Source of the DNA: an uncultured Pseudomonadales bacterium
Lineage (GTDB): Bacteria > Patescibacteriota > Microgenomatia > UBA1400 > PJMF01
Assembly: GCA_964404025.1 (NCBI GenBank)
Contig: CAYOIJ010000004.1
Span: 782 to 64,781, forward strand
DNA length: 64,000 nt
Reading direction: 5' to 3'
Shown here: positions 4,082 through 38,620 of the stretch, one piece after another
Layout: each line of letters begins with the position of its first letter
How positions within the stretch are numbered: position 1 is the stretch's first letter
The notes under the pieces: generated by a model
Database searches by the model: none
What the model saw: the letters and a program-made list of their open reading frames with translations, nothing else
Told to the model about the DNA's origin: nothing
Position numbers and translations under genes: made by a program

Positions 4082-4546
4082 ATGGCAATAACTATGGAAT
4101 CAATTAAGAAACTACGTCAAGAAACTGGAGCCCGAATTATGGATTGTAAGAAGGCTTTAGAGGAGGCGAAGGGTGATTTAAAATTAGCCAAAAAGTACGT
4201 TCAAGAAAAAGGTTTAGCTAGAGCAGAAAAGAGCACTGATCGTGAAGCGGGTGTTGGTTATATTGCTAGTTATACTCATGCTACAGGTCAAATTGCTAGT
4301 TTAGTAGAATTACTCTGTGAAACAGATTTTGTAGCGGCCAACGAAGAATTCCGTCAATTGGCTCAAAATTTAGCTATGCAAGTGGCAGCTATGAATCCTC
4401 AAGACAAAGAAGAATTATTAAAACAAGATTTTATTAGAGAGAGCGGTCAAACTGTAGACATGGTTATTAAAGCTTTGTCAGGAAAGATTGGTGAAAAAAT
4501 AGTTTTAGGTCGCTTCATACGTTTTGTGGTTGGTCAAGAGAACTAA
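4082..4546 (+). CDS. tsf: Elongation factor Ts, minimal 154-aa form
   Basis: N-terminal 'LRQETGARIMDCKKALEEAKGD' (UBA-like EF-Tu-binding domain), 'ETDFVAANEEF', and C-terminal 'GRFIRFVVG'. Located directly after rpsB, the conserved rpsB-tsf order. Confidence 0.85.
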   Translation: MAITMESIKKLRQETGARIMDCKKALEEAKGDLKLAKKYVQEKGLARAEKSTDREAGVGYIASYTHATGQIASLVELLCETDFVAANEEFRQLAQNLAMQVAAMNPQDKEELLKQDFIRESGQTVDMVIKALSGKIGEKIVLGRFIRFVVGQEN

Positions 4547-8555: not shown

Positions 8556-8560
8556 AAGCT

Positions 8561-9328: not shown

Positions 9329-9330
9329 GT

Positions 9331-9358
9331 AATTTAGATTGATATATCAATCTAAATT
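9331..9358. repeat. dif-like site 1: perfect 28-bp palindrome AATTTAGATTG-ATATAT-CAATCTAAATT (11-6-11)
   Basis: Read directly from the sequence; the reverse complement is identical. The architecture matches Xer recombination sites (two 11-bp arms and a 6-bp AT core). Confidence 0.55.
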
Positions 9359-19835: not shown

Positions 19836-22268
19836 ATGTTAACTGCCCAAAATAATCAACCAGATGATGCGGGTCAGGTTCAGCCAGTGGTTGAACCGAC
19901 TGCTACTCAAGAACCGACACAAAATCAAGATGCAACTGATGTGGTGCAAATTGATCCTAATTTACAACAGACAATTGACAATTTAGCTCAGGATTTAGAC
20001 ACGAGTTCTCCTCCACTGGAGGATAATAGCCAAAGCTTGCCAGAAGAAAGTTCTCAAAACAATGTTTTGGATAATCAAAAATTAGAACCTGTAAATCAAA
20101 GCGCAGATTCCAGTCAGATAGAAGTTCCTCAATTAGATCCAGTCAATATCATCCCAGACCAAGGGGTTGAAGTACAAAATGACACTGCCCCAACGGCTGG
20201 CGTAGACATTGCAGAGCCGATTTTTTCTCAAGCACCTGTCGCGGAGGCCAATCTTTCACAAGCCAGTCCAGCTAATGTTGACGCCGAGCAAGGCGCCGCA
20301 GTTAATGATCTCAGCAATCAGGGCATGAATGAAACAATTGGGAATGAAGCAGTTACGGCCGAAACAACAACAACTGAAGCAGCCACAACTGAAACTAGTG
20401 ATCTTAGCTTACAAACTCCCGAGCCAACACTTACAGCTGCACCTAGCACAGATAATACAGTGCAGGTGGTAGCTCAACAGTCACCGCTTGATCACTCAGT
20501 AGCACAAAGTAATACTGGGGGTTTTAGTTTTTCTGTAACCAATTCTTTTTTTGATGTCTTGGTTAATAATGGAATTGTTTCGCCCAAACAGGCTGAGGAA
20601 TTAAGGCAGGAAAACTTGAGCACTGGCCATAGTTATGAAGAACTAGTATTGAACAAACAATTAGCAACTGAGTCGGATGTTGTTCAAGCTAAGGCAGAAT
20701 TTAATAATCTACCCTACATTAAATTGTCCGCAACTGGTGTTGACCCAGAGGCTTTAACTCTTCTTGACGAAGGCATTGCTAAACGCTATCAAGCCTTACC
20801 CTTTAGCTTAGACAAAGAAAAGAAAAGTCTGCAAGTGGCAATGGCCAATCCTTTAGATTTAGCAACTATTGAATTTTTAAAACAAAAAACAGGTTACAAA
20901 ATAGACGCTTATTACAGTGAGAGTAGCGAAATTGCCCGAATGATTGAGGAGCGTTATTCTCAGAGTTTATCTAGCGAAGTTACTGAGGCACTCAAAAGCA
21001 CTCATCAGTATAAAGAAAAGGGCAAAGCAGATATTCAACTTGATCAACAAGCTGGAGCTATTTTGCGAGATGCGCCAATTAGTCGAATTGTTGAAAATAT
21101 TTTAGATTTTGCTATTAAATCTTCAGCTTCTGACGTTCACATTGAGCCTCAAGTCAACCGTACTCGAGTCAGATATCGTATTGATGGTATTTTGGCTGAA
21201 AAATTAATTTTGCCGCAAAATGTCCATGAGGCGGTAGTTTCTCGGATAAAAATTATGGCCAATCTAAAAATCGATGAAAAAAGATTGCCACAAGACGGGC
21301 GTTTCAATTATAAGGCCAATAATGCCGAGGTTGATTTGCGTACTTCTACTCTACCGACGGTGCACGGTGAGAAGGTTGTGATGCGTCTCTTACAAAAAGA
21401 CATGGCTGTTCCTTCACTGGAAGATTTAGGCATGACTGGCTTAGGTTTACAGAGGGTTAAGGAAGCGATTAAAGTTCCTTATGGAATTATCTTAATCACT
21501 GGCCCTACTGGCTCAGGTAAAACTACTACTCTTTATTCGATTTTAAATATTATCAATAAGGTGGGGGTTAACATTATGACCCTCGAGGATCCAGTTGAGT
21601 ACCAAATTCCTGGAGTTAGCCAAGTACAAACCAATCCTAAAGCAGGCTTAACTTTTGCTTCGGGACTGCGTTCTTTCTTGCGTCAAGATCCAGACGTGAT
21701 TATGGTCGGAGAAATTCGTGATAATGAGACTGCTGATTTGGCGCTGCAGGCTTCTTTAACTGGTCACTTAGTTTTCTCTACCCTACACACTAATAGTGCT
21801 GCTGGTGCGCTACCCCGTTTGTTGGATATGGAAGCAGAACCATTTTTATTGGCTTCATCTATTACTTTAGCGATGGGACAGCGAGTGCTAAGAAAAATTA
21901 ACCCAGCTTACAAAGAAGAATATCAGCCTGAAGCAGTAGTAATTGAAGATATTAAAAAAGTTTTGGGGACGCATTTTGATCGTTGGTGTAAGGACAATGG
22001 TAAAGATCCTAATAAAATTACTCTTTTCCGGCCCAGTAATAAACGACCAGCGACTGAACCAGAATACAAAGGTAGAATTGGTATTTTTGAAGTAATGCCT
22101 ATTTCTCCAGACATAGCAAGCCTAATTCTTAATCGAAAAGCAGCTAGTGAGCTTGAAAAAATTGCTGTTCAGCAGGGAATGCTTTTGATGAAACAGGACG
22201 GTTATCTAAAAGCCTTAGACGGTATTACGACTATTGAAGAGGTTTTACGGATAGCCGAGGTTACTTAA
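19836..22268 (+). CDS. pilB: Type IV pilus assembly ATPase PilB (GspE family) with long disordered N-terminal extension
   Basis: Walker A 'ILITGPTGSGKTTTLYS', Asp box, Walker B 'DVIMVGEIRD', His box, tetracysteine-region equivalents, and a GSPII N-domain around aa 270-380. The first ~250 aa are Q/T/P/D/E-rich low complexity. RBS AAAGGAG. Confidence 0.9.
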   Translation: MLTAQNNQPDDAGQVQPVVEPTATQEPTQNQDATDVVQIDPNLQQTIDNLAQDLDTSSPPLEDNSQSLPEESSQNNVLDNQKLEPVNQSADSSQIEVPQLDPVNIIPDQGVEVQNDTAPTAGVDIAEPIFSQAPVAEANLSQASPANVDAEQGAAVNDLSNQGMNETIGNEAVTAETTTTEAATTETSDLSLQTPEPTLTAAPSTDNTVQVVAQQSPLDHSVAQSNTGGFSFSVTNSFFDVLVNNGIVSPKQAEELRQENLSTGHSYEELVLNKQLATESDVVQAKAEFNNLPYIKLSATGVDPEALTLLDEGIAKRYQALPFSLDKEKKSLQVAMANPLDLATIEFLKQKTGYKIDAYYSESSEIARMIEERYSQSLSSEVTEALKSTHQYKEKGKADIQLDQQAGAILRDAPISRIVENILDFAIKSSASDVHIEPQVNRTRVRYRIDGILAEKLILPQNVHEAVVSRIKIMANLKIDEKRLPQDGRFNYKANNAEVDLRTSTLPTVHGEKVVMRLLQKDMAVPSLEDLGMTGLGLQRVKEAIKVPYGIILITGPTGSGKTTTLYSILNIINKVGVNIMTLEDPVEYQIPGVSQVQTNPKAGLTFASGLRSFLRQDPDVIMVGEIRDNETADLALQASLTGHLVFSTLHTNSAAGALPRLLDMEAEPFLLASSITLAMGQRVLRKINPAYKEEYQPEAVVIEDIKKVLGTHFDRWCKDNGKDPNKITLFRPSNKRPATEPEYKGRIGIFEVMPISPDIASLILNRKAASELEKIAVQQGMLLMKQDGYLKALDGITTIEEVLRIAEVT

Positions 22269-22330
22269 AACAGATGGCTTGTGTAAGCTGTAACCGGGCA
22301 TATATAATGAATGAATAAGGAGTTTAGTGA

Positions 22331-23389
22331 ATGACTATTCAAGAAATATTACAATTTTTAATTGACAATCAGGGGTCTGATGTTCATATTATTCCTGCTT
22401 CCCCACTTGCCATTCGTGTCAATGGAGTTTTAAGTTTTCCTGCAGGACCTCAGGCTATTGGTCCAGAGCAAACTCAAGCTTGGATTTTTGAATTATTAAG
22501 TGAAGCGCAAAAGCAAAAATTGAAAGAAAACAAAGAAATTGATCTGGCTTACCAATTTGGTGACAATGCCCGTTTTCGTATTTGTGTTTATCAGCACTTG
22601 GGTAATTATGCAGCAGCTCTGCGCTTAATTCCTCAAGAAATCAAAAGCATCGATGAACTAGCTTTGCCAAAAATTTTCCATCAATTTACAACTTACAACC
22701 AGGGTTTAGTGCTCTTTACTGGTCCCACTGGTGAGGGTAAATCAACTTCTCTAGCTGCCATTATTGATGAAATTAATCGCACTCAGAGTCAACATATTAT
22801 TACTATTGAAGACCCAGTGGAATTTATTTATCGGCCAGATAAAAGTGTGGTCTCGCAGCGTGAAATTGGTAAAGATACTCACGAATGGCACTTGGCTTTG
22901 AAAAGTGCCCTGCGCTCAGACCCCGATGTAGTTTTGGTTGGTGAAATGCGTGATTTGGATACAATTGCGGCCACTTTAACTCTGGCAGAGACGGGTCATT
23001 TAGTTTTTGCTACTATTCATACCAACACAGCTGGCCAAACCATTGACCGTATTATCGATGTTTTTCCTGCCCATCAACAAGGTCAAATTCGTCAGCAACT
23101 AGCCAGTGTTTTGCGGGCAGTAGTTTCTCAGCGTCTAGTAGCAAAAATTCATGGCGGCAGAACAGCCGCAATTGAATTGTTATTTAACAATTCAGCTATA
23201 GCCAATTTGATTCGTGACTCTAAGGTGTTTCAAATCGACAGTGTGATTCAAACTAATCTGAATGCTGGCATGATGTTGATGGAAAATCACTTGTTTGACC
23301 TTTATATTCAAAAAATTATTAGCAAAGAAACAGCTATTCGTAGCTCTTTTCGTCCAGCAGATATGCTTCGCTTGTTAGAAAATAACTAA
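22331..23389 (+). CDS. pilT: Twitching-motility (retraction) ATPase PilT
   Basis: 'VLFTGPTGEGKSTSLAA', 'DVVLVGEMRDLDT' and 'ATIHTNTAGQTIDRI' typical of PilT; 352 aa. Confidence 0.9.
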   Translation: MTIQEILQFLIDNQGSDVHIIPASPLAIRVNGVLSFPAGPQAIGPEQTQAWIFELLSEAQKQKLKENKEIDLAYQFGDNARFRICVYQHLGNYAAALRLIPQEIKSIDELALPKIFHQFTTYNQGLVLFTGPTGEGKSTSLAAIIDEINRTQSQHIITIEDPVEFIYRPDKSVVSQREIGKDTHEWHLALKSALRSDPDVVLVGEMRDLDTIAATLTLAETGHLVFATIHTNTAGQTIDRIIDVFPAHQQGQIRQQLASVLRAVVSQRLVAKIHGGRTAAIELLFNNSAIANLIRDSKVFQIDSVIQTNLNAGMMLMENHLFDLYIQKIISKETAIRSSFRPADMLRLLENN

Positions 23390-23397
23390 GGCTTGTT

Positions 23398-24600
23398 GTG
23401 CCAATTTTTAAATATATAGCTAAAAATAAACGTGGTGAAAATATTAAAGGTAAGGTGGAAGCAGCCTCCAAAATGCAGGCAGTCTCTACCCTGTTTTCGA
23501 GAGATTTATTTGTCATTGATGTCAGTAGTCTTGGCCAGGAGACAGGTTTTTTTTCTAAAATTTTTAAACCAAAAGTTAAATTTACTGAACTAGTTAATTT
23601 TACTCGACAGCTAGCAACGATGATTAATGCTGGTTTGTCTTTGGCTAGTGCCCTATCGATTCTAGAGGAAGAGGGCGAAAACGAAATGGCTAAGTTAACT
23701 GGCAACTTGCTTAAAGATGTAGAAAGTGGCTTAAGTTTTTCAGATGCTCTGCAAAAATATCCAGATAATTTTTCAAGAATTTATGTGCAGTTAGTCAGAG
23801 CTGGAGAAGCCGGCGGTGTGCTAGATGAAGTATTGGAGCGCTTAGCAATTACTTTGGAAAAAGACAAAGATTTTAAGGCAAAAACCAAAAGTGCCATGAT
23901 TTATCCAGTCATTATTTTGATAGCGATGTTGGCAGTGGGAGCAGTGATGATGATTGCTGTAATTCCTAAATTGACAGAAATGTATGATGATTTTGGCGCA
24001 GAATTGCCTGGCATGACTAGATCTTTGATGGCAATTTCAGGTTTTATGGTTAAGTTTTGGTGGTTGATGTTGCTACTGGGTATAGCAGGAGGCGCGATTT
24101 TGCGCTCTTACAAAAAAACAAAAAAGGGCGAATTAGCTATTGATCGCTGGTTATTGAAATTGCCCATTTTTGGCAAAATGCGCCAAAAAATAATTTTGAC
24201 TGATTTTACTCGCACCCTTTCTTTATTGTTGGGCGCAGGAGTGTCTTTATTGGAATCAATTAATATAGTAGCTCATGCTATTGATAACGCAGTTTATCGC
24301 GAAGAATTAGCTGAAGCAGCCAAACAAGTAGAAAAAGGAACCTCACTGTCAATGGCAATATCTCGCTATCAGGATTTTCCTTCGATCCTGCATCAGATGA
24401 TGAGTGTTGGCGAAGAAACTGGCAAACTTGATGAGATTTTACAAAAATTGGCAGAATATTTTGAAAAAGAGAGCGAGTATGCAGTCAAAAACATGACTAC
24501 TGCTATGGAGCCGCTCATTATGATTGTTTTGGCAGTGGGGGTGGGTTTTATGGTGGTGGCGATTATTATGCCAATTTATAGCTTAACCAGTCAATTTTAA
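23398..24600 (+). CDS. pilC: Type IV pilus platform protein PilC (GspF family)
   Basis: Two T2SSF repeats, each followed by membrane helices; 400 aa; directly follows pilT. Confidence 0.85.
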   Translation: MPIFKYIAKNKRGENIKGKVEAASKMQAVSTLFSRDLFVIDVSSLGQETGFFSKIFKPKVKFTELVNFTRQLATMINAGLSLASALSILEEEGENEMAKLTGNLLKDVESGLSFSDALQKYPDNFSRIYVQLVRAGEAGGVLDEVLERLAITLEKDKDFKAKTKSAMIYPVIILIAMLAVGAVMMIAVIPKLTEMYDDFGAELPGMTRSLMAISGFMVKFWWLMLLLGIAGGAILRSYKKTKKGELAIDRWLLKLPIFGKMRQKIILTDFTRTLSLLLGAGVSLLESINIVAHAIDNAVYREELAEAAKQVEKGTSLSMAISRYQDFPSILHQMMSVGEETGKLDEILQKLAEYFEKESEYAVKNMTTAMEPLIMIVLAVGVGFMVVAIIMPIYSLTSQF

Positions 24601-24693
24601 ATTGCTACTTGAAAAGCTGTTAAAAAATAAGTTACACTGGATATACGAATAAGCAAGAATTACTTGCGATTAGTAGTTATCAAAAGACAAATT

Positions 24694-25332
24694 ATGCAAA
24701 TCAAATCTTTTTACCCAAGGTTAAAAAAACAATTAGGCTTCACCATGATCGAGTTACTAATTGTAATTGCCATTTTGGGTATTTTGGCAGTGGCTGTCTT
24801 ATCAGCAATTAATCCAATTGAACAGATTAACCGTGGCCGAGACACAGGTACTCGCTCCGATGCAGAGCAATTGGTTACAGCTATTGATCGTTATTATGCG
24901 ATGAAAGGAATTTATCCATGGATGGATGCAGCTTCTGATCCGGTCGCTTACCCCTGGACAATGGTGGGATTGACGGATAATTTAGGAGCTCCTACCTTTT
25001 TGAGTACTGGTGGCTGCCCAACGCTTTATCGACTAAGTGACATGCCAGCGACTCCGCCAGCTGAATGTGGAACTGAGGTTGGTACCCAAGAATTAAAAAT
25101 TGGTTTTGTCAACAAAGTTGATGCAGACACTTATAACAAGCTCTATGTGTTTCATGATGACCAAAACTATGATTCAACCTATGTTTGTTTTGAACCAAAA
25201 TCTAACTCTTTCCAACAAGAGGCAGATGATCGTATAACAGCTGGTGTCCCAGATGACTATCCAGCAGATGCTTATGCTCAACCTGCTGACGGACACTGTG
25301 GTCCAGGAGGAAACTGTATCTGCTTACCATAA
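24694..25332 (+). CDS. Major type IV pilin (prepilin)
   Basis: Canonical class III signal 'KKQLG|FTMIELLIVIAILGILA' (G at -1, E at +5). The ORF-track frame opens at 24664 (TTG); the ATG at 24694 gives a 15-aa leader. A strong intrinsic terminator follows the stop. Confidence 0.8.
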   Translation: MQIKSFYPRLKKQLGFTMIELLIVIAILGILAVAVLSAINPIEQINRGRDTGTRSDAEQLVTAIDRYYAMKGIYPWMDAASDPVAYPWTMVGLTDNLGAPTFLSTGGCPTLYRLSDMPATPPAECGTEVGTQELKIGFVNKVDADTYNKLYVFHDDQNYDSTYVCFEPKSNSFQQEADDRITAGVPDDYPADAYAQPADGHCGPGGNCICLP

Positions 25333-25350
25333 TGAATTAAGTTTAAAACT

Positions 25351-25381
25351 AAAACCCGAGTCCTAGCACTCGGGTTTTTTT
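25351..25381 (+). terminator. Rho-independent terminator after the major pilin gene
   Basis: AAAACCCGAGT-cctagc-ACTCGGG followed by TTTTTTT: a 7-bp GC-rich stem and a T-tract. Confidence 0.75.
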
Positions 25382-25392
25382 GTTATGATGAG

Positions 25393-26241
25393 GTGATGGT
25401 ATTATTTTTTACTTATTATCTTGTTTTTGCCTTACTCTTATTTTTATTTGCTGCTATTTTGGCTAGTTTTTTAAATGTAGTGATTTATCGAACTGCAGCT
25501 GAATGTGAACTGATCAAGGATCAAAAAGGAAAAGTGCTAAAATTAGCTCCTTTTTGGCGTGGGCGATCACTAACTGATTGTTGTCAGCGATCAATTCGAG
25601 CTGGTGACAATATTCCCCTTATTTCATTTTTATTATTAAAAGGTCGCTGTCGCTATTGTCAAAGTAAAATAGCCAAGCACCACTTTAGTAGTGAACTGTT
25701 ATCTGGACTTTATGCCTTGTTTTTTGCCTGTATTGTTTATTGGCAAATAAGTGCTGGACAATTATTAAACCCGATTACCCTAACCGCTCAATTTTTGTTT
25801 TTTTTACTTTTAATGTTTGTGGTAATTGCTGATTTTCGATACCTAATTATTCCTGATTTTTTTATCGTTTTATTGAGTATTTTAGCTATTTTTTTGGCTT
25901 GGCCAAATTATTTAAGTGCTTTGATTGGGACTGTGATTTCTTCAATCTTTTTTGTTCTCCTCTATTTTTTAGCCAGCTGGATTTTTAAAAAAGAAGCGAT
26001 GGGCTTGGGAGATATTAAGCTCATGCTACCTTTAAGTTTTGTTCTGGCATGGCCCAGGGTGTTGTTGGCAATTTTCCTTAGCTTTATTGTTGGGGGTATT
26101 TTTGCTACAATTTTATTGCTATTTAAACAGAAAAAAATTGGTCAAAGTCTGCCTTTTGGACCTTTTTTGGTTGTGGGTTTTATACTTAGTTATTTTTGGG
26201 CAGAGCCAATTTGGGCTTGGTATTTAGCTCTTTTTTTATGA
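25393..26241 (+). CDS. pilD: Prepilin peptidase PilD (A24 family)
   Basis: N-terminal tetracysteine zinc motif (CCQRS...CRYCQ), 8 TM helices, and the catalytic 'GLGDIKLM' aspartate motif. Confidence 0.85.
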   Translation: MMVLFFTYYLVFALLLFLFAAILASFLNVVIYRTAAECELIKDQKGKVLKLAPFWRGRSLTDCCQRSIRAGDNIPLISFLLLKGRCRYCQSKIAKHHFSSELLSGLYALFFACIVYWQISAGQLLNPITLTAQFLFFLLLMFVVIADFRYLIIPDFFIVLLSILAIFLAWPNYLSALIGTVISSIFFVLLYFLASWIFKKEAMGLGDIKLMLPLSFVLAWPRVLLAIFLSFIVGGIFATILLLFKQKKIGQSLPFGPFLVVGFILSYFWAEPIWAWYLALFL

Positions 26242-27254
26242 GAATTATTCGGATTTTTTTCTCAACTTTAGCTTTGATTTCGCTCTTTTTATTACTAGCT
26301 ATTTTTTTGGGTCGGGAAATTTTACTGATTATGGCAGTTAGTGATTTAAAAAGAGCTAGTGTTTTTCTCAGAGAAGAGCGACATTTAGCCAATTGTCAGG
26401 ATGGTTTTGCTATTTCTTCTACAGCTTGGGGTCAAATGCGCTTTGAAAATGAGCACGATTATCACTTAGAAAGTGTCTGTAGTAGTTTTGCAAGTAAACC
26501 AATTTTTCTTGAGGAGAGACAGCTACCTATTTTTGTTAAAAAGGTCGCTGGTGCTTCAGGCTTTATCTTTGATCATGAAAAAAACCCCAGTCAAATTACT
26601 CTGAGCAGTTTTGGTAAAGAAATAACTGTCTATAGTGAAGACAATCAGCTCGAGTCGGGTCAAGCTCCTGAGTTGAGCTATATAGTTGGCCCAGTTAGTT
26701 CTTGTCAGTCTTTTAATTATCGCTGTTGCCAAGAAGAAGTGGAAAAAGGTGTGGGAGAAGTGCAATCTTTGGCAAGTGACTGCCCCAAGGCTTGTTTTAA
26801 ATCTTGTTTAGCACGACCTTTAGTTTTATCTTTTAATGCCATGGGTTCAAATTTGGCCAATGATGGTGTCTTGTACACTAATTCAGGTAGGAAAAATACT
26901 TTTACTTTTGTAGTAAGTGACGGTAAGCAAGAGTTGTTTAGCGACCAAGTTTTAACTAAGCAAAAGCCAAGCGGCATTGCTGGCTTACAAGATCGTTTAG
27001 AAAATTTGATTGCAGTATTTAGTAAATTAGATAATAGTAGTATACAGCAAGCTAAAATGCCAATTACCACCACTATTTTTTTTGGTGATGGTCAAAACTA
27101 TAGCACTCAAGATTTGCAAGGAGCAGTTGATCACATATATACTTGCAGTGAGACAGTGTGTTATTTTGATGCTTGGATTGAAGCTCAGGATGCAAGATTA
27201 ACGCCATCACTTTTGACCGAACTAAATCGTTTGACAGTAATAGTAAACAATTAG
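26238..27254 (+). CDS. Cys-rich membrane-anchored hypothetical protein, translationally coupled to pilD
   Basis: ATG at 26238 overlaps the pilD TGA stop (ATGA). N-terminal TM 'IIRIFFSTLALISLFLLLAIFL'. Cys cluster 'CQSFNYRCCQEE...DCPKACFKSC'. Confidence 0.4.
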   Translation: MRIIRIFFSTLALISLFLLLAIFLGREILLIMAVSDLKRASVFLREERHLANCQDGFAISSTAWGQMRFENEHDYHLESVCSSFASKPIFLEERQLPIFVKKVAGASGFIFDHEKNPSQITLSSFGKEITVYSEDNQLESGQAPELSYIVGPVSSCQSFNYRCCQEEVEKGVGEVQSLASDCPKACFKSCLARPLVLSFNAMGSNLANDGVLYTNSGRKNTFTFVVSDGKQELFSDQVLTKQKPSGIAGLQDRLENLIAVFSKLDNSSIQQAKMPITTTIFFGDGQNYSTQDLQGAVDHIYTCSETVCYFDAWIEAQDARLTPSLLTELNRLTVIVNN

Positions 27255-27262
27255 AGGATTTT

Positions 27263-27715
27263 ATGAATAAACAAAAACAAAAAGCTTTTACCTTGTTAGA
27301 GTTACTAGTGGTAATAGCCATCATTGGCATCTTAATTTCTTTGGGTGTGGCTAGTTTCTCCAATGCTCAAAAAAAATCACGTGATTCGCGTCGTCGAGAA
27401 GATCTAAAGGCGATGCAAAATGGTTTAGAACAACATTATGCTGATTATACTAGTTATTCTAGTTCTTCAGGTCATGACGAACAAGGTTTAACAGGAATTT
27501 TATCTGGTTTAAATAGTGCCAGCGAGTATTTTCCAGCTGGAGCTCCAGTGGATCCGAGAAATCAAAATCCCTATATCTATCGAGCTAGTTACAACAATAG
27601 TTCTTATTGTTTGTGCGCTCTTTTAGAGAGCCCTGGTACAGGCAATTCTAATTCAAGAACCTGTGCTGGGTTTGTGGCAAACGGTAATTATTTTTGTGTT
27701 AGCAATTTACAGTAA
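27263..27715 (+). CDS. Minor type IV pilin / pseudopilin
   Basis: 'KQKA|FTLLELLVVIAIIGILISLGV' prepilin N-terminus with Ala at -1 and Glu at +5. RBS GAGGA. Confidence 0.75.
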   Translation: MNKQKQKAFTLLELLVVIAIIGILISLGVASFSNAQKKSRDSRRREDLKAMQNGLEQHYADYTSYSSSSGHDEQGLTGILSGLNSASEYFPAGAPVDPRNQNPYIYRASYNNSSYCLCALLESPGTGNSNSRTCAGFVANGNYFCVSNLQ

Positions 27716-27737
27716 ATTAAAATTCTGAAAGATATTT

Positions 27738-28157
27738 ATGAAAAAAAAAGAAAAAAAACAAAGTGCTTTTACCCTGATTGAAGTGTTGGTGGTGGCCACT
27801 ATTTTGGCAGTGCTATTATCTGTCGCAGTTGTTTCTTTTTCCAATGCTCAGAGAAAATCACGCGATGCCAGGCGTAAAGCAGATTTAGAAACGGTGCGAC
27901 AAGCTTTAATTCTTTACCGACAGGACAATGGTAGTTATGGCAGTATTGGTTCGGATAATACTGGTTTTAATAACTTAGTTACTACTCTTTATAATGAAGA
28001 GTATTTAACCACTCCCACAGTAGTTGATCCTAAGAATGACGTTAGTTATTTTTATAGCACTGCTTGTCCAAGCGCTGACAATCCCAATTGTAGCAAAGTT
28101 AGGTTAAGTACTACTCTTGAATCAGACGCTTCCACTTATGAAATTTTCACTCCATAA
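27738..28157 (+). CDS. Minor type IV pilin / pseudopilin
   Basis: 'KKQSA|FTLIEVLVVATILAVLLSVAV' prepilin N-terminus. Confidence 0.75.
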   Translation: MKKKEKKQSAFTLIEVLVVATILAVLLSVAVVSFSNAQRKSRDARRKADLETVRQALILYRQDNGSYGSIGSDNTGFNNLVTTLYNEEYLTTPTVVDPKNDVSYFYSTACPSADNPNCSKVRLSTTLESDASTYEIFTP

Positions 28158-28620
28158 ATCTTCAGCCTACTCTCTGATTGAGCTTTTGGTTTCGATATCA
28201 ATTGTCTTGATTTTAGTATCAAGTGCGCTGGCTGGTTATATTCGCTACAGTGATAAACAACGACTAGTGGCAGCAGCAGAAAAACTAGAAACTGGCTTAA
28301 AAGAAGCACAAAATATGGCAAGAATTGGTTATTTAGGGACTTGTGATGAGCTAGCGGGGGTTAATTTAATAACTAGCTCTTATGGAACTGCTGGTATCGC
28401 CTATCAAATTAGCATATTATGTGAACCATCTGGCTCGGACCTCATGCCAATTGTTAATTTAGATGAAGATTTACTAATTGATGCCCCAATTAATATTACT
28501 TTTAGACCTTACAATCACCTCGGTAATTCTACCAGCGTAAGATTAGACTCTGCTCGCAGTAATTACTATGCTGTTTTTGATATTGATCAGGGAGGCGGTA
28601 TTAAAGTTACTTATCATTAA
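28138..28620 (+). CDS. Minor type IV pilin-like protein
   Basis: 'MKFSLHKSSA|YSLIELLVSISIVLILVSSALAGY' with Tyr at +1 and Glu at +5. Start taken at the ATG at 28138, which overlaps the end of the previous pilin gene. Confidence 0.6.
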   Translation: MKFSLHKSSAYSLIELLVSISIVLILVSSALAGYIRYSDKQRLVAAAEKLETGLKEAQNMARIGYLGTCDELAGVNLITSSYGTAGIAYQISILCEPSGSDLMPIVNLDEDLLIDAPINITFRPYNHLGNSTSVRLDSARSNYYAVFDIDQGGGIKVTYH

Positions 28621-28627
28621 ATTAGCA

Positions 28628-29128
28628 ATGAAAAACATAAAAGATTTTTATAAAGATAGAAAGAAAAAGCAGACAGGCTCAACTTTTATTGAGGTTTTAG
28701 TAGCAATGGTAGTGGTGGCGACAGTGTTGACTGCTTTGGGCTCAATGATGGCTTTGTCAATGAGAGTGGCTGAAGCCAATGAAATGGAGCAATTAGCCCA
28801 GCTCAAAGCCCAACAAGTGCTAGAATTTTTTCGCAAGGAGCGTTTGGTTAGAGGTTGGATCACTTTTTTTAGTAGTCTAGATAATGGAGATTATTGTCTT
28901 AGTCCCTTGCCTGATAGTATTGATAATATTAGTCCTGCCCCCTGCCCCACACCTCTTACAGTACTCAATCATTTTTACTACAAAATTGAAACCAATGTTA
29001 GTAAGGATACTGCTGTCGATGAGGAAAGTGTTCAACTAGAAGTAAGTGTTTATCGCTATAGCAAGGGAGGAACGTTGTTGGGCAATGGAGCCTTTTTTAC
29101 CCTTAATCAGGTTTTTAAACAATATTAA
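28628..29128 (+). CDS. Minor pilin-like protein (PilV/PilW-like)
   Basis: 'MKNIKDFYKDRKKKQTG|STFIEVLVAMVVVATVLTAL' with Gly at -1 and Glu at +5. Confidence 0.55.
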   Translation: MKNIKDFYKDRKKKQTGSTFIEVLVAMVVVATVLTALGSMMALSMRVAEANEMEQLAQLKAQQVLEFFRKERLVRGWITFFSSLDNGDYCLSPLPDSIDNISPAPCPTPLTVLNHFYYKIETNVSKDTAVDEESVQLEVSVYRYSKGGTLLGNGAFFTLNQVFKQY

Positions 29129-29138
29129 ACAATGGTTT

Positions 29139-29651
29139 TCAATTACGTAGACTAACTCCTGAGCTAAAATCTAGTTGGCTGTGACTGGCGCTAGGATCAC
29201 TAGCAGCACTACTAGCTAGAGTAAAACTAATTTCAACATATTTTGCTCCAGAGTCAATGTTGTGACAAACAAACTCTAAATCTCTGAGTTGATTGCTGCC
29301 GGCACCCGGACTACTACTTAAGAAATAAGTGTTGGTATCAGAAACTAAAGCTATTTTGTCATCTATATTGCTAAAAACACTAATCACTTCATCTGCGCTA
29401 GTGAATTCTAAAGTGGGGCTAGGACTACCATCACAAGTAGAAGTAATACTTTTAGCGTTACGCAGTTCTTCAATCATTTTTTGCATAGCAGAACCACCAT
29501 TTTCTCGAATACTTTGACTGAGGCGGGCTTTTCCAGCCGAAACAATGAAGCTAATAAACAAGCTGGTCATACCCATCATTACCAAAACAGTAAGACTGGA
29601 AGTAACCAAGAGTTCAATTAGGGTAAAGGCGCTTTGCTTATTAGAGCTCAT
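29139..29651 (-). CDS. Type IV pilin-like protein (convergent operon)
   Basis: 'MSSNKQSA|FTLIELLVTSSLTVLVMMGMTSLF' prepilin N-terminus. Confidence 0.7.
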   Translation of the reverse strand: MSSNKQSAFTLIELLVTSSLTVLVMMGMTSLFISFIVSAGKARLSQSIRENGGSAMQKMIEELRNAKSITSTCDGSPSPTLEFTSADEVISVFSNIDDKIALVSDTNTYFLSSSPGAGSNQLRDLEFVCHNIDSGAKYVEISFTLASSAASDPSASHSQLDFSSGVSLRN

Positions 29652-29680: not shown

Positions 29681-31573
29681 TTAATTGTCAAAACTTCGAG
29701 GAGCAATTTCTCGCCAATTAATAATACTAACCTTAAGCTCGTCTGGCCAATTGATTAAAAGATCAGGTCGATAAAGAAAATTTTCCAAAGCCTGAATGTT
29801 GTTTATCTCTTTGTATGATTCTGTGGCGGGCGTGTTGTCATCAGTTTGGCGATTGAGCTCAATGCCTTCAAGACCAATAAAAGTGCCAGCAGCAATTAGT
29901 TTACGATCTGGATAACTGACAAGAGCAGAGTCTTGTTCTTGGCCGTTGACAACAATTTTTTGATTACTAAAGAAAACTCCCTCTAAGTGGGTATTATTAA
30001 AATTAACAGCTGGGTTGTTGAGACTGACTGGATCGAGAGTGGTGCCGACATTAGAGCGAATAATAATATCTTCGGTAGTGAAAAAAGCTAAGAAGCCACC
30101 AGTATTAGCACTGGTTTTTCTAGCGACACTGATGATTTTGGCGCCACTAGCACCGGTATTATCAATGGTTAGTGAACCATTGACAAAGACAACAACACTT
30201 TCCCCATGGTTGACTATAAAATTTTTACTTTGATCAATAGTTAAATTACCATTAACTTCGAAAAAATTTGTTTGGGAACTTGTTAACCAGCCATTATTAC
30301 GCCAATTAAGCAAATTGGTTTCAGCTGGGGTTAGCTGGTGCAAAGTTCCACCAATATTATTTGCCAGTTGTTTAAAGTAGTTATAACTCAATGCTTGAGG
30401 GTTAAAGCCTAAGGCGAATCCGTCTGAACTTTGACTACTAGTTCGTTGACTAGTTAAGTGAATATTAGCTAAGTGCTCATTGGAGTCAATATGAGTTTGT
30501 ATTGAATTAAGACTGGTGCTGGTAAGTAGTGGAAAACCACTGGATAAATTATCATTAGCGGGTTGAGGGACAAAAATGCCAGCCTGACAAGTAGGTAGTA
30601 AGCAGTTATTGGCATTGGGCCCAATTGATCTGAGTAGGTTTCGAGTAAAAGCGTTAGCTCCAAAAATTTGAAACCAGCTTTCTGAATAATTGTTAAAGTA
30701 AAAATTGCGAGTAAGTGTGTCACCTACCGGAACATTTAAGGCGTAGCTACAACCAACTGGACAAGTACAAGAATATGTAAAATCTTGGACATTGGCAGTT
30801 ATGGTCAAAGGATCTCCTTCAGCTATTTCATCAAGATTAAAGTTATAAGTATGGCTATCGATTAAACCATGATTAAAAACGGGATCACTTTTAAGTTGTG
30901 ATTGTAAAAACACTCCATCAGAGTAATTGTTAGCGTTAGTATGACTACAACTATTGCTAGCTGGATTATAGGTAGCACTACTTGATTGATAAAAATTAAC
31001 AGTCACCTCTAGTTGTTTGGTAGGTATGTTTGTCGGCGTTGGTGGTGGATTTGTCGGTGGAGGTCCACTTGTCGGTGTGGGGTTCCAAGGGTCATCATCT
31101 CCCCCTTCGTTTCTTGCGCAGCAGCTCCAGGTTCGGCTACCATATTTTAACTCACAGCCATAATTGGAAGAATTACAACCACAGACATCCCAAGGATAAG
31201 CCCCATCCCAGTCGTCCCGACACTCTTCGTTTCTGGTACATGTTCCACCACCCTGTTGACATCTGCATGTTTGTATTGGTGCTGAGGTTAAATCACATCT
31301 GATACCTCCATATATTGTGCAAGTGCATTCATCGTTGGTGCATGTACAACTATCACCTGTGTAGCCATTGCCAGCACAGTAATTACTCAAACCCCCAGCA
31401 GTACCACTGTAAGCAATAAATCTACAGCCGGTATACCACACCATGCTTGATTGTTGTGATCCATAACAATACCAACCATCTCCACAACGATCATCTGCTT
31501 GAATAGGTGACAGTTTAACCGCTATTGTGATTGCGATAAAGAAAGAGATGAGTAAAAAGATTTTTTTAGTCAT
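29681..31573 (-). CDS. Secreted Cys-rich / beta-rich large protein, putative pilus-associated adhesin
   Basis: Signal peptide 'MTKKIFLLISFFIAITIAVKLSPIQA'. ~140-aa domain with ~30 Cys (CTCTNDECTCT..., CRCQQGGGTC...). Pro/Thr linker 'PTPTSGPPPTNPPPTPTNIPT', then ~440 aa rich in N/S/T/G. Co-oriented with and immediately upstream of a pilin gene. Confidence 0.4.
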   Translation of the reverse strand: MTKKIFLLISFFIAITIAVKLSPIQADDRCGDGWYCYGSQQSSMVWYTGCRFIAYSGTAGGLSNYCAGNGYTGDSCTCTNDECTCTIYGGIRCDLTSAPIQTCRCQQGGGTCTRNEECRDDWDGAYPWDVCGCNSSNYGCELKYGSRTWSCCARNEGGDDDPWNPTPTSGPPPTNPPPTPTNIPTKQLEVTVNFYQSSSATYNPASNSCSHTNANNYSDGVFLQSQLKSDPVFNHGLIDSHTYNFNLDEIAEGDPLTITANVQDFTYSCTCPVGCSYALNVPVGDTLTRNFYFNNYSESWFQIFGANAFTRNLLRSIGPNANNCLLPTCQAGIFVPQPANDNLSSGFPLLTSTSLNSIQTHIDSNEHLANIHLTSQRTSSQSSDGFALGFNPQALSYNYFKQLANNIGGTLHQLTPAETNLLNWRNNGWLTSSQTNFFEVNGNLTIDQSKNFIVNHGESVVVFVNGSLTIDNTGASGAKIISVARKTSANTGGFLAFFTTEDIIIRSNVGTTLDPVSLNNPAVNFNNTHLEGVFFSNQKIVVNGQEQDSALVSYPDRKLIAAGTFIGLEGIELNRQTDDNTPATESYKEINNIQALENFLYRPDLLINWPDELKVSIINWREIAPRSFDN

Positions 31574-32282
31574 TGATAAGTTTGTAGCTTACTACTGGCC
31601 AAAAGTAGCGCTTACCACTTACTTCTGGTAAAAATTGTGTATCGCCAGTTTGATAGAAACTTGTTAAATCTTCCATGGTGTAGGGCGGATTGGATTCCAA
31701 CAATGTTTCAAAGGCAGCTCCTCTGGTTTTTTCAAGCCTTAGTTCGGCACTGGGATAATCAAGGTCAACTTTAATGCTTTTACCCACGGCCACACTTTCC
31801 CCCCAAAAAGTCTCAGTCATGGCCTCGTACCAAGTTAGAGAGGTAATCTCGGCAATTTGTCTGATTAAATCCTCATCTGGTTCGATTTGCATATCTGCTC
31901 CAACCAAGAGATACTCCATTTTTTCAGGATGATAAATGTGGAGTGGCAAATGGATTATTTCGACTTCTTGCAAAACATTCAAGTATGAACAGGCAATATC
32001 TGCCAAGACTTTCCACCCCCCAGGAACAACAGGAGCTCGTTGATAATTGCGATATTGATTGATATTTTCAATTTGACACTCTAAGCGATGAATCTGAAAA
32101 AATTCCCCTTGTTCTGGAACGATGGGAAACTGATTTGTTTTTTGTTCTTGACCTTGATAGTGAACGATCGGTTGAGGGTTCGAGTTTTGTTGTAGCCGCA
32201 TTTTGCGCCAAAAAAACAAAAAAATACTTGTAAAAAGAAGAAGAATCAATAGAGCTAACAGTAAGTAATTTTTTTTCTGCAC
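31566..32282 (-). CDS. Membrane-anchored hypothetical protein
   Basis: N-terminal TM 'YLLLALLILLLFTSIFLFFW'. Overlaps the start of the downstream adhesin-like gene by 8 nt. Confidence 0.35.
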   Translation of the reverse strand: MQKKNYLLLALLILLLFTSIFLFFWRKMRLQQNSNPQPIVHYQGQEQKTNQFPIVPEQGEFFQIHRLECQIENINQYRNYQRAPVVPGGWKVLADIACSYLNVLQEVEIIHLPLHIYHPEKMEYLLVGADMQIEPDEDLIRQIAEITSLTWYEAMTETFWGESVAVGKSIKVDLDYPSAELRLEKTRGAAFETLLESNPPYTMEDLTSFYQTGDTQFLPEVSGKRYFWPVVSYKLIND

Positions 32283-32340: not shown

Positions 32341-33519
32341 CTATGGCAGTGCTTGCCAGTGTTGTGGGAATGGAGGTCCATCTGGATTGCGCCATTGTTG
32401 TGAATCATTTGCCCAACTTGCTACTTCCTCAATGAAGGTTTGGTTTTGGTAGTTGTCTGTCGTTGACAAAGTGGCGTAATTGACAAAGGGGTAGATAAAA
32501 GGGATTTCAATACCGGTTTTGCTATCAAGCATGAAGTAAGGAAAAAGATCAGTGTTACCTGTGTTTCTAAAATCAAGCATTTGCTCTTCGCTGTAGCTTG
32601 GGTCTTCTACCATTCCAGCGCCACCAATAAACTCTTCATTGCCTGGATATTCACTATCAAAATTGATAAAGGCACCCGGTCCCATCCAATAGCCTTGTTT
32701 TGCATAGTTCGTCATAAATGAGACCCTAAAATCATAATCTGGATTATAATTAAAATTAGGATTGCTGTAATTGCTTATTATATCTCTAAAATGATGTCCG
32801 CTATCTATTTGACTTGCATATCTAGGAGGAGAAAATATGGGGCTTTTGTCCCACATCAATTCTTTTTCAATTTCCCAAATGTCAATGGGTAGTAGCACCA
32901 TTTGGTATTGGCCGCTCGCATTTTTGTAAATGGCTTCGATCCAGGCCATGATTTTTTTGTTGGCAGCTGTGGTGGGTGCTTGGTCGTAGCGAGCTTGGCT
33001 ATTGAGAGAATCTACACCAACAACCAGCATGGTTTTAAAGACTCGATCATCACTAAAACTAGTTTCAAGAGCCTCCATAAAACCCTCTAAGTCTTGAATT
33101 TCACTAAACCAAAGGTTGTTTGAATTATCTATATTTTCTAGATCAATGCCTGCTTCTCTAGCTCGTTGAATACAGTATTCATGCATGTTTTCAGCTTCAG
33201 TTTTTTCTGGAGTAGCGGTATTTTCTGGGGTGGCAGTGTACTCTGGGGTGCTAGTTGCAGTTATTGTTTCAACAATTGTTTCTTCGCCCTCGCCAGGGAC
33301 ATCAAGCCCATCAATAGTTTGAGTGATGGCCGGTCTAGTTTCTTGGGCTTGTCCTTCTGGGGTACAAGAAGTGAGAATGAAGGTGGCCAAAGTGACAAAG
33401 CCCAGAGCTCTATAGACCTCCGCTTTTATCTTAGCCATCTTGATTGGCAAATTTTTTAAAGATTCAGGCAGTTCTTGTTTAGAGCTAATTTTTGCCTGTT
33501 TGTTTTCAATCTTGTTCAT
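32341..33519 (-). CDS. Putative lipoprotein / anchored secreted protein with Thr/Pro/Glu-rich linker
   Basis: 'MAKIKAEVYRALGFVTLATFILTSC' resembles a lipobox signal (an internal start at 33438 is possible). The repeat 'TATSTPEYTATPENTATPEKTE' is followed by a ~280-aa globular region. Confidence 0.35.
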   Translation of the reverse strand: MNKIENKQAKISSKQELPESLKNLPIKMAKIKAEVYRALGFVTLATFILTSCTPEGQAQETRPAITQTIDGLDVPGEGEETIVETITATSTPEYTATPENTATPEKTEAENMHEYCIQRAREAGIDLENIDNSNNLWFSEIQDLEGFMEALETSFSDDRVFKTMLVVGVDSLNSQARYDQAPTTAANKKIMAWIEAIYKNASGQYQMVLLPIDIWEIEKELMWDKSPIFSPPRYASQIDSGHHFRDIISNYSNPNFNYNPDYDFRVSFMTNYAKQGYWMGPGAFINFDSEYPGNEEFIGGAGMVEDPSYSEEQMLDFRNTGNTDLFPYFMLDSKTGIEIPFIYPFVNYATLSTTDNYQNQTFIEEVASWANDSQQWRNPDGPPFPQHWQALP

Positions 33520-36137: not shown

Positions 36138-37007
36138 TCAATTGTCAACCGTTTCTTCTATAAGTTGTCCGTCTTCGTCATAAGTCTGCCACTCTACCTC
36201 GTCTAATTCAGTTTGACTAGCTTCCAGTTGCGCTTCTAATTCCTCAATACTCATTCCTTGTAAACCAAAGAGATTGCCTCGGTCATTTTTTAGGACTTCT
36301 TCTTGGATTGGCAAGTTGCCGGGAATCAACTTTTTAATTTCTTCCAGGATGATTAGTTGATCGTTAGCTATTGGTGGCAATGGTTCTGTAATGGTGACAC
36401 TAATAGGCTGAGTAAAATAAAAGGTTTTTAGTGTTAAGTTGGCAGTCGTGTTGACTGAGCCAAGTTCATTAACTTCTCGACTGAGAGAGATATTGGTAAT
36501 AGTGCTAATGGGAGTAACCTGCTCAATGAGTGTCATAAAGCTTTGTACATTTCTAAGTGTGCCTGAAACAGCAAATTCCAATTCTAGTTCGTCATAGTTT
36601 TTTTGTTTTTTAGTTTTGCTTAAAAGAGTGCTGTCGGTAGCGATCTCTCCTGGAGAGAGGGAAAAATTTTCAACTAGAGTTTCACTCTGAATAGATACAT
36701 TATTGAGGTTATCTAGCAACTCTAATAGGGGTTTGTGTGAAGGCAGGACCTCATCAATTTCACTCATTTTTTTAAACTCACTATCAAAGGCCATATTGGC
36801 TAGTTCGTCAGCTTTGGTTTGAAATTTATTTAATTCTTGATTGGTTTTATCTAGTTCAGCAAAAACCGCCTTGATGGGAGTGATTTGTCGCAGAATTACC
36901 ATGGTAAAAATTACAAATGATAAGGTAAAAAACAAGATTGCTAAAACTAGTTCTTTGCGAGTATTCCAAATGAGCTTGTAGTTAAATTCTTGTTTATTAA
37001 CTGACAT
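36138..37007 (-). CDS. pilO: PilO-like type IV pilus assembly protein
   Basis: N-terminal TM, then a coiled coil; lies directly downstream of the pilM-pilN genes. Confidence 0.45.
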   Translation of the reverse strand: MSVNKQEFNYKLIWNTRKELVLAILFFTLSFVIFTMVILRQITPIKAVFAELDKTNQELNKFQTKADELANMAFDSEFKKMSEIDEVLPSHKPLLELLDNLNNVSIQSETLVENFSLSPGEIATDSTLLSKTKKQKNYDELELEFAVSGTLRNVQSFMTLIEQVTPISTITNISLSREVNELGSVNTTANLTLKTFYFTQPISVTITEPLPPIANDQLIILEEIKKLIPGNLPIQEEVLKNDRGNLFGLQGMSIEELEAQLEASQTELDEVEWQTYDEDGQLIEETVDN

Positions 37008-37610
37008 TTAATTATCTTCTTCCTCAATTAAGTCACTATTTTCTGTACCCAATAAACCTAAGTCTTCAACAGTTTTGAGTTGAATTTTTAGACTAAGTTG
37101 GTAGTTTCCTTGGTCTTCTCTTTTCAAAGAAGTTTTTTCAACATTTTTATAAACATCTTTAACTAGAGAAGAATTAATAATTGCCATACTCTCTTCTAGT
37201 GGAAAAACACTGCTGTGATCTAATTGAAGAATTAAACCACCACTGCTTTCGTTGTAAGTCATGCCAGTGATTGTGGCAACATCAGTCATTAAATCAGCAA
37301 AATAATTCATGGCTGCTTGTTTATCACTTCGTGCGGAATAAATTTCACCAACTGATTGGAGTTTATTGACAAAGATTAGGTAAGATAATTCTATTTCTTC
37401 TTGATCAAGAATGGTCTTTTTTAATTTAGCGATTGTTTCTACTTTGTTTTTGATTCTTAAATTGACTAGTAGTCTGAGTCCCACAACAGCCAACAATAAA
37501 AAGACTACTGTTGACAGAACAATAACAGCTATTTTAAACAATTTTTTATCTTGTTGTTTTTCTTTTTGTTTATGTCTGGTCTGACTAGACAAAAAATTAA
37601 TTTCAATCAT
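37008..37610 (-). CDS. pilN: PilN-like type IV pilus assembly protein
   Basis: 'MIEINFL' N-terminus (the INLLP-like PilM-binding peptide), a single TM, and coiled coil; 4-nt overlap with pilM. Confidence 0.55.
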   Translation of the reverse strand: MIEINFLSSQTRHKQKEKQQDKKLFKIAVIVLSTVVFLLLAVVGLRLLVNLRIKNKVETIAKLKKTILDQEEIELSYLIFVNKLQSVGEIYSARSDKQAAMNYFADLMTDVATITGMTYNESSGGLILQLDHSSVFPLEESMAIINSSLVKDVYKNVEKTSLKREDQGNYQLSLKIQLKTVEDLGLLGTENSDLIEEEDN

Positions 37611-38620
37611 GATAATTTTCGCATCACCAAACCCATACAGACCGTATATTGAAGATGCCTATCTTTTGGAACTTGCCCTTTGGCTTTGGCAAAAGGAGCC
37701 ATTAAAAGAACTTCTACATTACTGAGCTGTTGGGATAAATATTGACTAAAGCCAATCATTTCCGCTGGGCCACCTGACAGCACGACTCTTTTAATAGTTT
37801 GACCAGGATGAAGTTGGCTAAAATAGCGGAGTGCTTTTTGAATTTCTATGACAACATTGTTGATCATGGGTAACATCAGTTGGACCAATTTACCCTCTAG
37901 TTGTTCAGAGTTTAGTCCATAAGTAATTTTGTAACTTTCTGCTTGCTTTAAGTCTAGGCCAAAAGTTTGAGCGATGGCATTTGTTATTAATTGAGAACCA
38001 TTTTTACTACTAAAGACAAAATCAAACATGCCGTTGGCTACTACAGCCAAATCAAGATTATTTGCGCCCAAGTGCACAATGAGAGTTTCTGGATCATCAC
38101 TTTGCAGGTCTAGAGCTCTAATGATAGAAAACATTTGAGTTTCTATGACTGTTGGTTCAATGCCAAAACCAAGAAAAATACTATTAAGTTTTTCAATAAA
38201 AGATTTTCGAGAAGCCACCAACAACACCTTCATTTTATTTTCTGGCGTTTTCTTTTCTGGACGAAGCAAGACTTGATATTCTAGTAATAAATCTTCTTTA
38301 GGAATGGGAATGTATTGTTCTGCTTGCCAGCCAATTGCGCTAGCTAATTCTGCATCGGTTAGGACTGGTATTTCAATAACTTTATTAGCAATTACTGATT
38401 CTGGTAAGCTGAGGCGAACATCACTGGCATCCAATTTATAATCATTCATTAGATTGGCAATCATTTCGCTAAATAGAGCTGTTTCTTGATCGCTTTGAGG
38501 AATTACTAAATTAGTAATATTCGGCACGTCGACGGCCTGAATGATATTGATTTCCTTAGCATTTTTGGCTGAGATAGCTTTGATACTATGAGTACCAATG
38601 TCTAGGGCAGTAATTGACAT
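37607..38620 (-). CDS. pilM: Type IV pilus assembly ATPase-fold protein PilM
   Basis: 'ALDIGTHSIKAISA' actin-like N-terminus, and 337 aa with the FtsA/PilM fold pattern. Confidence 0.8.
   Translation of the reverse strand: MSITALDIGTHSIKAISAKNAKEINIIQAVDVPNITNLVIPQSDQETALFSEMIANLMNDYKLDASDVRLSLPESVIANKVIEIPVLTDAELASAIGWQAEQYIPIPKEDLLLEYQVLLRPEKKTPENKMKVLLVASRKSFIEKLNSIFLGFGIEPTVIETQMFSIIRALDLQSDDPETLIVHLGANNLDLAVVANGMFDFVFSSKNGSQLITNAIAQTFGLDLKQAESYKITYGLNSEQLEGKLVQLMLPMINNVVIEIQKALRYFSQLHPGQTIKRVVLSGGPAEMIGFSQYLSQQLSNVEVLLMAPFAKAKGQVPKDRHLQYTVCMGLVMRKLS

Follow-up and report, generated by a model that had tools for sequence, protein, structure and literature searches.

The window analysed here is a stretch of 64,000 nucleotides (nt) from contig CAYOIJ010000004.1 of an uncultured bacterium, and our subject is a gene near its middle that encodes a secreted, modular protein of 630 amino acids (aa), labelled FAM630. 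It is the third gene of a four-gene unit, ordered 392 aa, 238 aa, 630 aa and pil170, which converges with a plus-strand type IV pilus (T4P) gene cluster. The genes of this unit and the parts of the 630-aa protein are as follows:

32341..33519, minus strand: lipoprotein-like protein of 392 aa whose lipobox is LTSC; its gene opens the four-gene unit
31566..32282, minus strand: 238-aa protein with a membrane anchor at its N-terminus, whose gene runs 8 nt into the start of the 630-aa gene
29681..31573, minus strand: open reading frame (ORF) of the 630-aa protein, stop codon at 29681-29683, with nine orthologues
31496..31573, minus strand: signal peptide, residues 1-26 (KK, a hydrophobic core, then IQA before and DD after the cleavage site), read from the sequence
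31079..31495, minus strand: Cys-rich head, residues 27-165, with 18 Cys (12.9%), fast-evolving
31022..31078, minus strand: Pro/Thr linker, residues 166-184, 74% Pro plus Thr
30689..31021, minus strand: middle beta-rich domain, residues 185-295, with a CxCP..C.Y motif (C269, C271, P272, C275, Y277)
29684..30688, minus strand: conserved C-terminal module, residues 296-630, made up of a WFQ..G region, a short beta-helix and a helix
29684..29731, minus strand: tail at the extreme C-terminus, KVSIINWREIAPRSFDN (residues 615-630), proposed to act as a docking strand
29139..29651, minus strand: 170-aa minor prepilin, pil170 (PF07963 N_methyl, E 1e-4; ComGF, E 0.0036)

The gene arrangement given in a preliminary description of this DNA was confirmed: alongside the 8-nt overlap upstream, pil170 starts 29 nt beyond the end of the 630-aa gene, on the same strand and with no terminator-like site between the two. 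Promoter and terminator scans of the window gave counts no higher than those in shuffled sequence. Along the DNA, the 630-aa gene occupies the slot after H-, I- and J-like pilins, where pilK and pilY1 lie in other systems. Pil170 is weakly ComGF/GspJ-like, and its profile matched only pilin N-terminal helices when compared with the PDB.

The ORF and its signal peptide bear out the view of this gene as encoding a secreted protein. The N-terminus, MTKKIFLLISFFIAITIAVKLSPIQA followed by DD, has the appearance of a Sec-type signal peptide, and the N-termini of the orthologues align with it and end in A-x-A-like sites. No prepilin motif (a class III signal, with G or A before the cleavage site and F-T-L-x-E after it) was found in the 630-aa protein or in the 165 family members checked, whereas the neighbouring pil170 does carry one. 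The Cys motifs of the head (CTCTNDECTCT, CRCQQGGGTCTRNEEC and CGCNSSNYGCELKYGSRTWSCC) and the Pro/Thr linker (PTPTSGPPPTNPPPTPT) are all present as quoted in the preliminary description, and the remainder beyond the linker is indeed rich in N, S, T and G (36-38%). The figure of about 30 Cys given there for the N-terminal module was too high, as residues 27-165 hold 18 of the 24 Cys in the whole protein. In the middle domain, the CxCP..C.Y motif is invariant among the orthologues and recurs in distant members. The linker may be a site of O-glycosylation by the PMT-family enzyme of the window, a protein O-mannosyltransferase encoded at 62195..63562 on the plus strand. Searches with the 630-aa protein against Pfam and NCBIfam returned zero matches, and Pfam gave none even at E≤10.

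A word-indexed search found only nine full-length orthologues, all unannotated and 35-72% identical, plus a handful of distant proteins related to them by the C-terminal part. An exhaustive profile search, with the family counted as clusters at 50% identity, gave representatives of 1,862 clusters at E≤1e-3, of 1,085 at E≤1e-10 and of 303 at E≤1e-30, so that the family numbers at least 1,862 clusters. Since there are nine full-length orthologues and a large remote family sharing the C-terminal part, the 630-aa ORF is no chance reading frame. Throughout the 1,862 representatives the conserved module forms the extreme C-terminus of the protein, and the N-terminal parts differ, with Cys-rich, CBM_4_9, F5/8 type C (discoidin), PA14, TSP1, VWA, fn3, Big_2, SdrD_B and Ig-like modules among the relatives. 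Each of these extra domains is of a binding or spacer type, and neither Pfam nor NCBIfam gave a catalytic domain for any of 116 family members. The Cys-dense module, first described as unusual in bacteria, proved to be the norm in this family, since 114 of 144 full-length members carry at least 10 Cys per 120-aa window; Cys-rich extracellular proteins have also been noted before among the surface proteins of the Candidate Phyla Radiation (CPR) (PMC4736985). DUF7305 (PF23981), a family of no known function and with no mention found in the literature searched, matches the beta-helix rungs of 19 of the 116 relatives weakly (E from 2e-8 at best to 1e-3). It has no match in the 630-aa protein even at E≤10, let alone at the Pfam gathering score of 27 bits, and any kinship would be at the superfamily level at most.

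A full-length AlphaFold2 (AF2) model, built from 12 sequences, was rejected for fold searching, as its predicted local distance difference test score (pLDDT) was 46 and the Cys module and residues 295-394 were unmodelled; the middle domain is all-beta in this model, at low confidence. Residues 295-630, modelled in AF2 with 73 sequences, reached a pLDDT of 91.2 and a predicted template modelling score of 0.90. In order, this model shows the WFQ..G sub-region with the conserved Cys pair C324/C329, a short beta-helix (rungs VVVFVNGSLTI, GGFLAFFTTEDIII, LEGVFFSNQKIVV and KLIAAGTFIGLEGIELNR) and a helix. Using Foldseek, we found no fold match for residues 295-630 in the PDB or BFVD at E≤1e-3. The top matches were ice-binding beta-helices (DUF3494/IBP-1; E 0.09-0.6, template modelling score 0.2-0.4, 8-10% identity), which likewise have a right-handed beta-helix flanked by a helix and are not significant. 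Sequence-profile searches of the PDB, run from the alignment of the orthologues and from that of the C-terminal part, gave nothing meaningful. In one distant relative, a 1,282-aa member at locus L031 (2392..6240), TSP1-like Cys repeats lie at the N-terminus and two discoidin-like repeats are inserted between rungs of the beta-helix, which therefore tolerates large insertions.

Right-handed beta-helices are a common scaffold of glycan-active enzymes. The 630-aa protein might accordingly be pictured as a polysaccharide-degrading or cell-wall-active enzyme, with a catalytic beta-helix of the pectate lyase or tailspike type that breaches the host envelope, and both the CBM_4_9 modules of some relatives and a set of conserved R, D, E, Y and W residues (e.g. 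R575, R602, D604 and E622) would suit such a role. However, the 116 members gave zero matches to enzyme families in Pfam, NCBIfam or PDB profiles, the best Foldseek matches, at E about 0.1, are to non-enzymatic ice-binding proteins, with a pectin methylesterase following at E 9.3, the helix has only about 4-5 rungs, and the conserved polar residues gather in the terminal peptide and not in a groove. We consider a catalytic role very unlikely, and the lack of a catalytic domain or a significant Foldseek enzyme match agrees with the preference of the preliminary description for a binding protein over a degradative enzyme.

The terminal peptide has the family consensus F.[YF]RPD....P..M......W.E[VT][AN]P. 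Its W.E motif lies no more than 30 residues from the end in 168 of 177 family members, 103 of which stop 2-3 residues past the motif. Among the orthologues the invariant tail residues are S616, I618, W620, E622 and A624, that is, every second position, a periodicity that would be that of a beta-strand with one conserved face. In the monomer model the tail has a pLDDT of only 69, versus mostly >90 for the preceding 300 residues. A chain end that is conserved and fixed in position, yet modelled with low confidence, is what would be expected of a peptide that completes the fold of a partner, although this is no proof. In reading the sequence of the C-terminal module, we found neither a hydrophobic segment nor a known sorting motif.

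The head of the protein has evolved differently from its C-terminal part. Between the window and its closest relative, locus L009, identity is 79-96% for the pilus machinery and 92% for pil170, whereas the 630-aa protein reaches 72% across only 71% of its length, with an unalignable head. In the same locus the 238-aa gene is undetectable and the 392-aa gene is 46% identical across 21% of its length. Among the orthologues, identity is 27-36% in the head versus 52-74% in the C-terminal part, and 16 of the 18 Cys of the head are conserved in at least eight of the nine orthologues. A fixed disulfide scaffold with variable loops, set on a conserved stalk, is the usual sign of a recognition surface under diversifying pressure, and suggests one here. 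The division of labour implied by the preliminary description, with a lectin-like C-terminal region, is probably reversed, as the C-terminal region is conserved and defines the family and the Cys-rich module is fast-evolving. The C-terminal beta-rich region is thus likely to be the stalk or docking part and the Cys-rich N-terminal module the binding head.

In all close relatives the 392-aa, 238-aa, 630-aa and pilin genes keep their order, converge with the T4P cluster and lie beside NusB, RNase III and S16. A pil170-type pilin also follows the family gene in seven distant loci, at 25-39% identity. These loci are listed below, where the identities given are those of the conserved module:

L008: 1,435-aa member with CBM_4_9, 30% identity, then a pil170-type pilin
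L022: 706-aa member, 27% identity, then a pil170-type pilin
L025: fragment, about 33% identity, then a pil170-type pilin
L031: 1,282-aa member with TSP1-like repeats and two discoidin-like domains, 29% identity, then a pil170-type pilin
L033: 593-aa member, 39% identity, then a pil170-type pilin
L034: two tandem paralogues, 32% identity, with the pilin after the second paralogue
L035: 680-aa member, 33% identity, with the family-pilin pair apart from the T4P machinery

At L008, L022, L031, L033 and L034 the unit faces minor pilins, a homologue of a 352-aa membrane protein of the window's T4P cluster, and PilD where the retrieved DNA extends to it. Since the L035 pair sits away from the T4P machinery, the family gene and its pilin travel as a unit. 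The operon at L035 (1475..4106, 9647..10009) consists of genes for a large protein, a short transmembrane (TM) protein, the family member and the pilin, amid six small PF18895 (T4SS_pilin) genes. The linkage to pilus genes that had been proposed from the window therefore recurs in relatives: every close one keeps both this minor pilin and the T4P cluster beside the gene, and the seven distant loci keep the pairing with the pilin.

The upstream genes are less widely shared. The 238-aa protein is conserved in close relatives only, and its positional analogues in distant loci share position and topology; for the 392-aa gene, homology to positional analogues is undemonstrable past the close relatives. 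Two candidate extensions of the 238-aa family, a fusion of its gene to the adhesin in P0013 (L008) and homology with the short genes for TM-anchored proteins that lie upstream in distant loci, were unsupported, with hhalign probabilities of 0.4-2.4%.

For ten distant members of the family, spread over nine loci (two at L006 and one each at L007, L013, L019, L021, L026, L029, L030 and L036), no pilin gene was found within the retrieved flanks. The terminal motif is kept in these members, which are equally compatible with alternative heads for the same docking site and with a pilus-independent role. The latter could take the form of a cell-surface adhesin whose C-terminal module is an envelope anchoring or sorting domain, held by the 392-aa lipoprotein and the 238-aa protein, with T4P adjacency reflecting co-regulation only. 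Such a protein would explain the ten unlinked genes; the module is moreover always C-terminal to variable "passenger" parts, like known anchoring domains, and a large lipoprotein or TM protein and a TM-anchored protein of about 200 aa precede pilin-less family genes at L006, L007, L013 and L036. On the other hand, the pil170-type pilin trails the gene across deep divergence, even away from the machinery at L035, the short upstream proteins have no detectable homology between lineages and are thus poor candidates for a conserved anchor, and the module lacks the hydrophobic segment or known sorting motif of an anchoring domain. We regard a surface adhesin of this kind as unlikely, while giving it serious weight.

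We therefore compared the 630-aa protein with known pilus proteins. PilC/PilY1 adds its last ~10 residues as a beta-strand to PilK, which anchors it at the pilus tip, and such C-terminal strand addition has been predicted for the unrelated MshQ and shown for CpaL (PMC13533445). In the Saccharibacterium Nanosynbacter lyticus TM7x, T4P loci encode two large proteins that lack a PilD signal, PilX1 and PilX2, and host binding depends on PilX2 (PMC11623550). As tip strand addition has these precedents, and as the Saccharibacteria proteins also lack a PilD signal, we propose that the 630-aa protein is a functional analogue of PilC/PilY1 or MshQ. On balance, we lean towards the interpretation that it is a Sec-exported, non-pilin T4P accessory protein, a PilY1/PilC-like tip adhesin of unrelated fold with a novel docking module.

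Like PilY1/PilC (PF05567), the 630-aa protein is a non-pilin with a Sec signal that is encoded with minor pilins, and it has the same layout of a variable N-terminal part, adhesive in PilY1/PilC, a conserved C-terminal module and a conserved extreme C-terminal peptide. It differs in that their module is a 7-bladed beta-propeller and its own, in the AF2 model, a short beta-helix, and in that the organism encoding it is apparently monoderm. MshQ of the MSHA pilus and CpaL/TadG of the Tad pilus, compared here by description, are large accessory proteins encoded beside tip minor pilins and unrelated to PilY1, and thus provide a precedent for analogous, non-homologous tip proteins; CpaL, however, has a pilin-like N-terminal domain, which the 630-aa protein does not. 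PilX1 and PilX2 are likewise large proteins of CPR T4P loci with no PilD-type signal and with accessory lectin-like domains (PMC11623550), but their jelly-roll and RCC1 beta-propeller domains, again by description, set them apart from a Cys-rich head and a beta-helix. The modular pilins PilB and PilC of Streptococcus sanguinis similarly graft an adhesive module on a T4P component in a monoderm (PMC8179133); unlike the 630-aa protein, they are bona fide pilins, bearing a class III signal peptide. The kind of protein, a non-pilin T4P tip adhesin, is known, and what would be new here is the proposed docking fold, the head types and the lineage.

Building on the domain anatomy, the beta-helix model, the size and modularity of the family, the hypervariability of the head and the conserved pairing of the gene with a single type of pilin, all established here, we infer a tip location, strand donation, a binding function and a ligand for the 630-aa protein. 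The C-terminal module (the beta-rich middle domain, the beta-helix and the terminal ...S.I.W.E.AP) would dock onto the minor-pilin initiation complex, most likely by donating its last ~10-15 residues as a beta-strand to the adjacent GspJ/ComGF-like pil170. The docked protein would thereby be carried out at the pilus tip, where the Pro/Thr linker, possibly O-glycosylated (O-mannosylated), would hold the disulfide-rich head outward. The fast-evolving head would then be the ligand-binding part, mediating attachment to a host cell or surface.

Several observations weigh against this interpretation. Besides the ten family genes without a nearby pilin, no similarity of the 630-aa protein to PilY1/PilC was found in Pfam, NCBIfam, PDB profiles or Foldseek against the PDB. 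Gene context is the one source for its pilus association and tip location. Pil170 appears, by weak scores, to be J-like and not K-like, so that the published PilK strand-addition scheme would not transfer one-to-one. The terminal peptide could merely cap the protein's own beta-helix, and the head has a pLDDT of only 21-36 in the full-length AF2 model. Of the PilY1/PilC-like adhesin put forward in the preliminary description, the association with a pilus gains from the pairing with the pilin and from the absence of any sign of an enzyme, while the tip location, drawn from gene context only, and the generality of the pilus link, in view of the ten unlinked genes, are less secure.

A wider version of the tip-adhesin interpretation is that the beta-helix and terminal strand form a universal docking cassette of CPR-type monoderm T4P, which replaces both PilK and PilY1 and presents interchangeable heads through a pil170-type pilin. 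These heads could include Cys-knot-like, lectin, discoidin and TSP1 modules as well as paralogues encoded far from the pilus locus. We put this forward tentatively, as a possibility that is more doubtful than a tip role for the 630-aa protein itself. If true, it would amount to a swappable host-recognition system of ultrasmall episymbionts.

The remaining pilus genes of the window are as follows:

27263..29128, plus strand: four convergent prepilin genes, two GspG-like, one GspH/ComGD-like and one PilV/GspI-like (Pfam N_methyl, NCBIfam)
19836..27254, plus strand: T4P machinery, with PilB, PilT, PilC, the major pilin, PilD and a Cys-rich 352-aa membrane protein
36138..38620, minus strand: pilus assembly genes PilM, PilN and PilO

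These genes bear on a further explanation, in which the 630-aa protein is cargo of a pseudopilus resembling that of a type II secretion system (T2SS) and is released to the medium. Its Sec signal and the neighbouring pseudopilin-like genes, with GspG/H/I-like scores, are what such a substrate would have. However, the organism is apparently monoderm (it has FemAB and PBP1, and no secretin was seen in the T4P cluster or the window) and would offer no outer membrane for a piston-type T2SS; PilT, a retraction ATPase, and PilMNO point to a true T4P, and tight one-to-one pairing with a pilin would be unusual for cargo. We rate secreted cargo as the least probable of the explanations considered here, and highly improbable in itself.

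Several features of the pilus cluster are recorded here in their own right. The 352-aa protein (26196..27254, plus strand) carries a TM segment at its N-terminus and 10 Cys and gave no match in Pfam, and its gene overlaps the end of pilD. A homologue adjoins PilD or minor pilins in all T4P loci examined, including L008, L022, L031, L033 and L034, and the protein may belong, so far unrecognised, to the T4P of these bacteria. In most minor pilins of the window (27263..29651) the residue at -1, just before the prepilin cleavage site, is Ala and not Gly (A before FTLIE), the canonical G before FTMIE is found in the putative major pilin (24664..25332), and in the more distant relatives L022 and L031 all pilin cleavage sites have Gly.

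The remaining genes of the window are housekeeping genes, among them gyrase, ribosomal proteins, aminoacyl-tRNA synthetases, PBP1 and FemAB, and its GC content is ~37%. EF-Ts is only 154 aa and ribosomal protein S2 has an N-terminal extension of ~118 aa (3044..4060, 4082..4546); the EF-Ts of L006 is likewise short. Based on the low GC, the short EF-Ts, the monoderm markers and the secretin-less T4P cluster, together with published CPR features (10.1101/335083), the organism is probably a small-genome monoderm of the CPR/Patescibacteria type. A tyrosine recombinase (Phage_integrase) gene at 11188..12186 lies ~0.5 kb from a tRNA gene (12698..12771), and GC minima of 0.30 occur at 6001-8000 and 46001-48000; the recombinase/tRNA region and the GC dips may mark an integration site or foreign DNA.

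Among the distant loci, family paralogues occur within one locus, in tandem or nearby, at L034 (3816..6990) and L006 (6252..7928 and 10001..12871). The member at L013, with two upstream membrane-protein genes (8203..11545), is on a 2.37-Mb "Anaerolineales" chromosome, with ParA, restriction-modification and Fic-like genes as neighbours and no pilin nearby, and may represent horizontal transfer beyond the CPR. At L036 the family gene is split into ORFs of 456 aa and 84 aa. A bAvd/23S_rRNA_IVP four-helix-bundle gene directly follows two distant members, at L036 (7538..7912) and at the P0012 locus, and this adjacency may be a link to diversity-generating retroelements or a coincidence.

How the ultrasmall CPR/Patescibacteria recognise and hold their hosts is a central open question, with T4P the main suspects and a tip adhesin candidate so far for one cultivated Saccharibacterium only. 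The family described here comprises at least 1,862 clusters, is unannotated, has a confidently modelled module with a fold not found in the PDB, and is linked by its gene order to a single type of minor pilin. Should the docking model be true, this module would supply a sequence signature for pilus-tip adhesins in uncultivated bacteria, the hypervariable heads would be likely determinants of host specificity, and the recently proposed rule of C-terminal strand addition in tip assembly would reach both another fold and another part of the bacterial tree.

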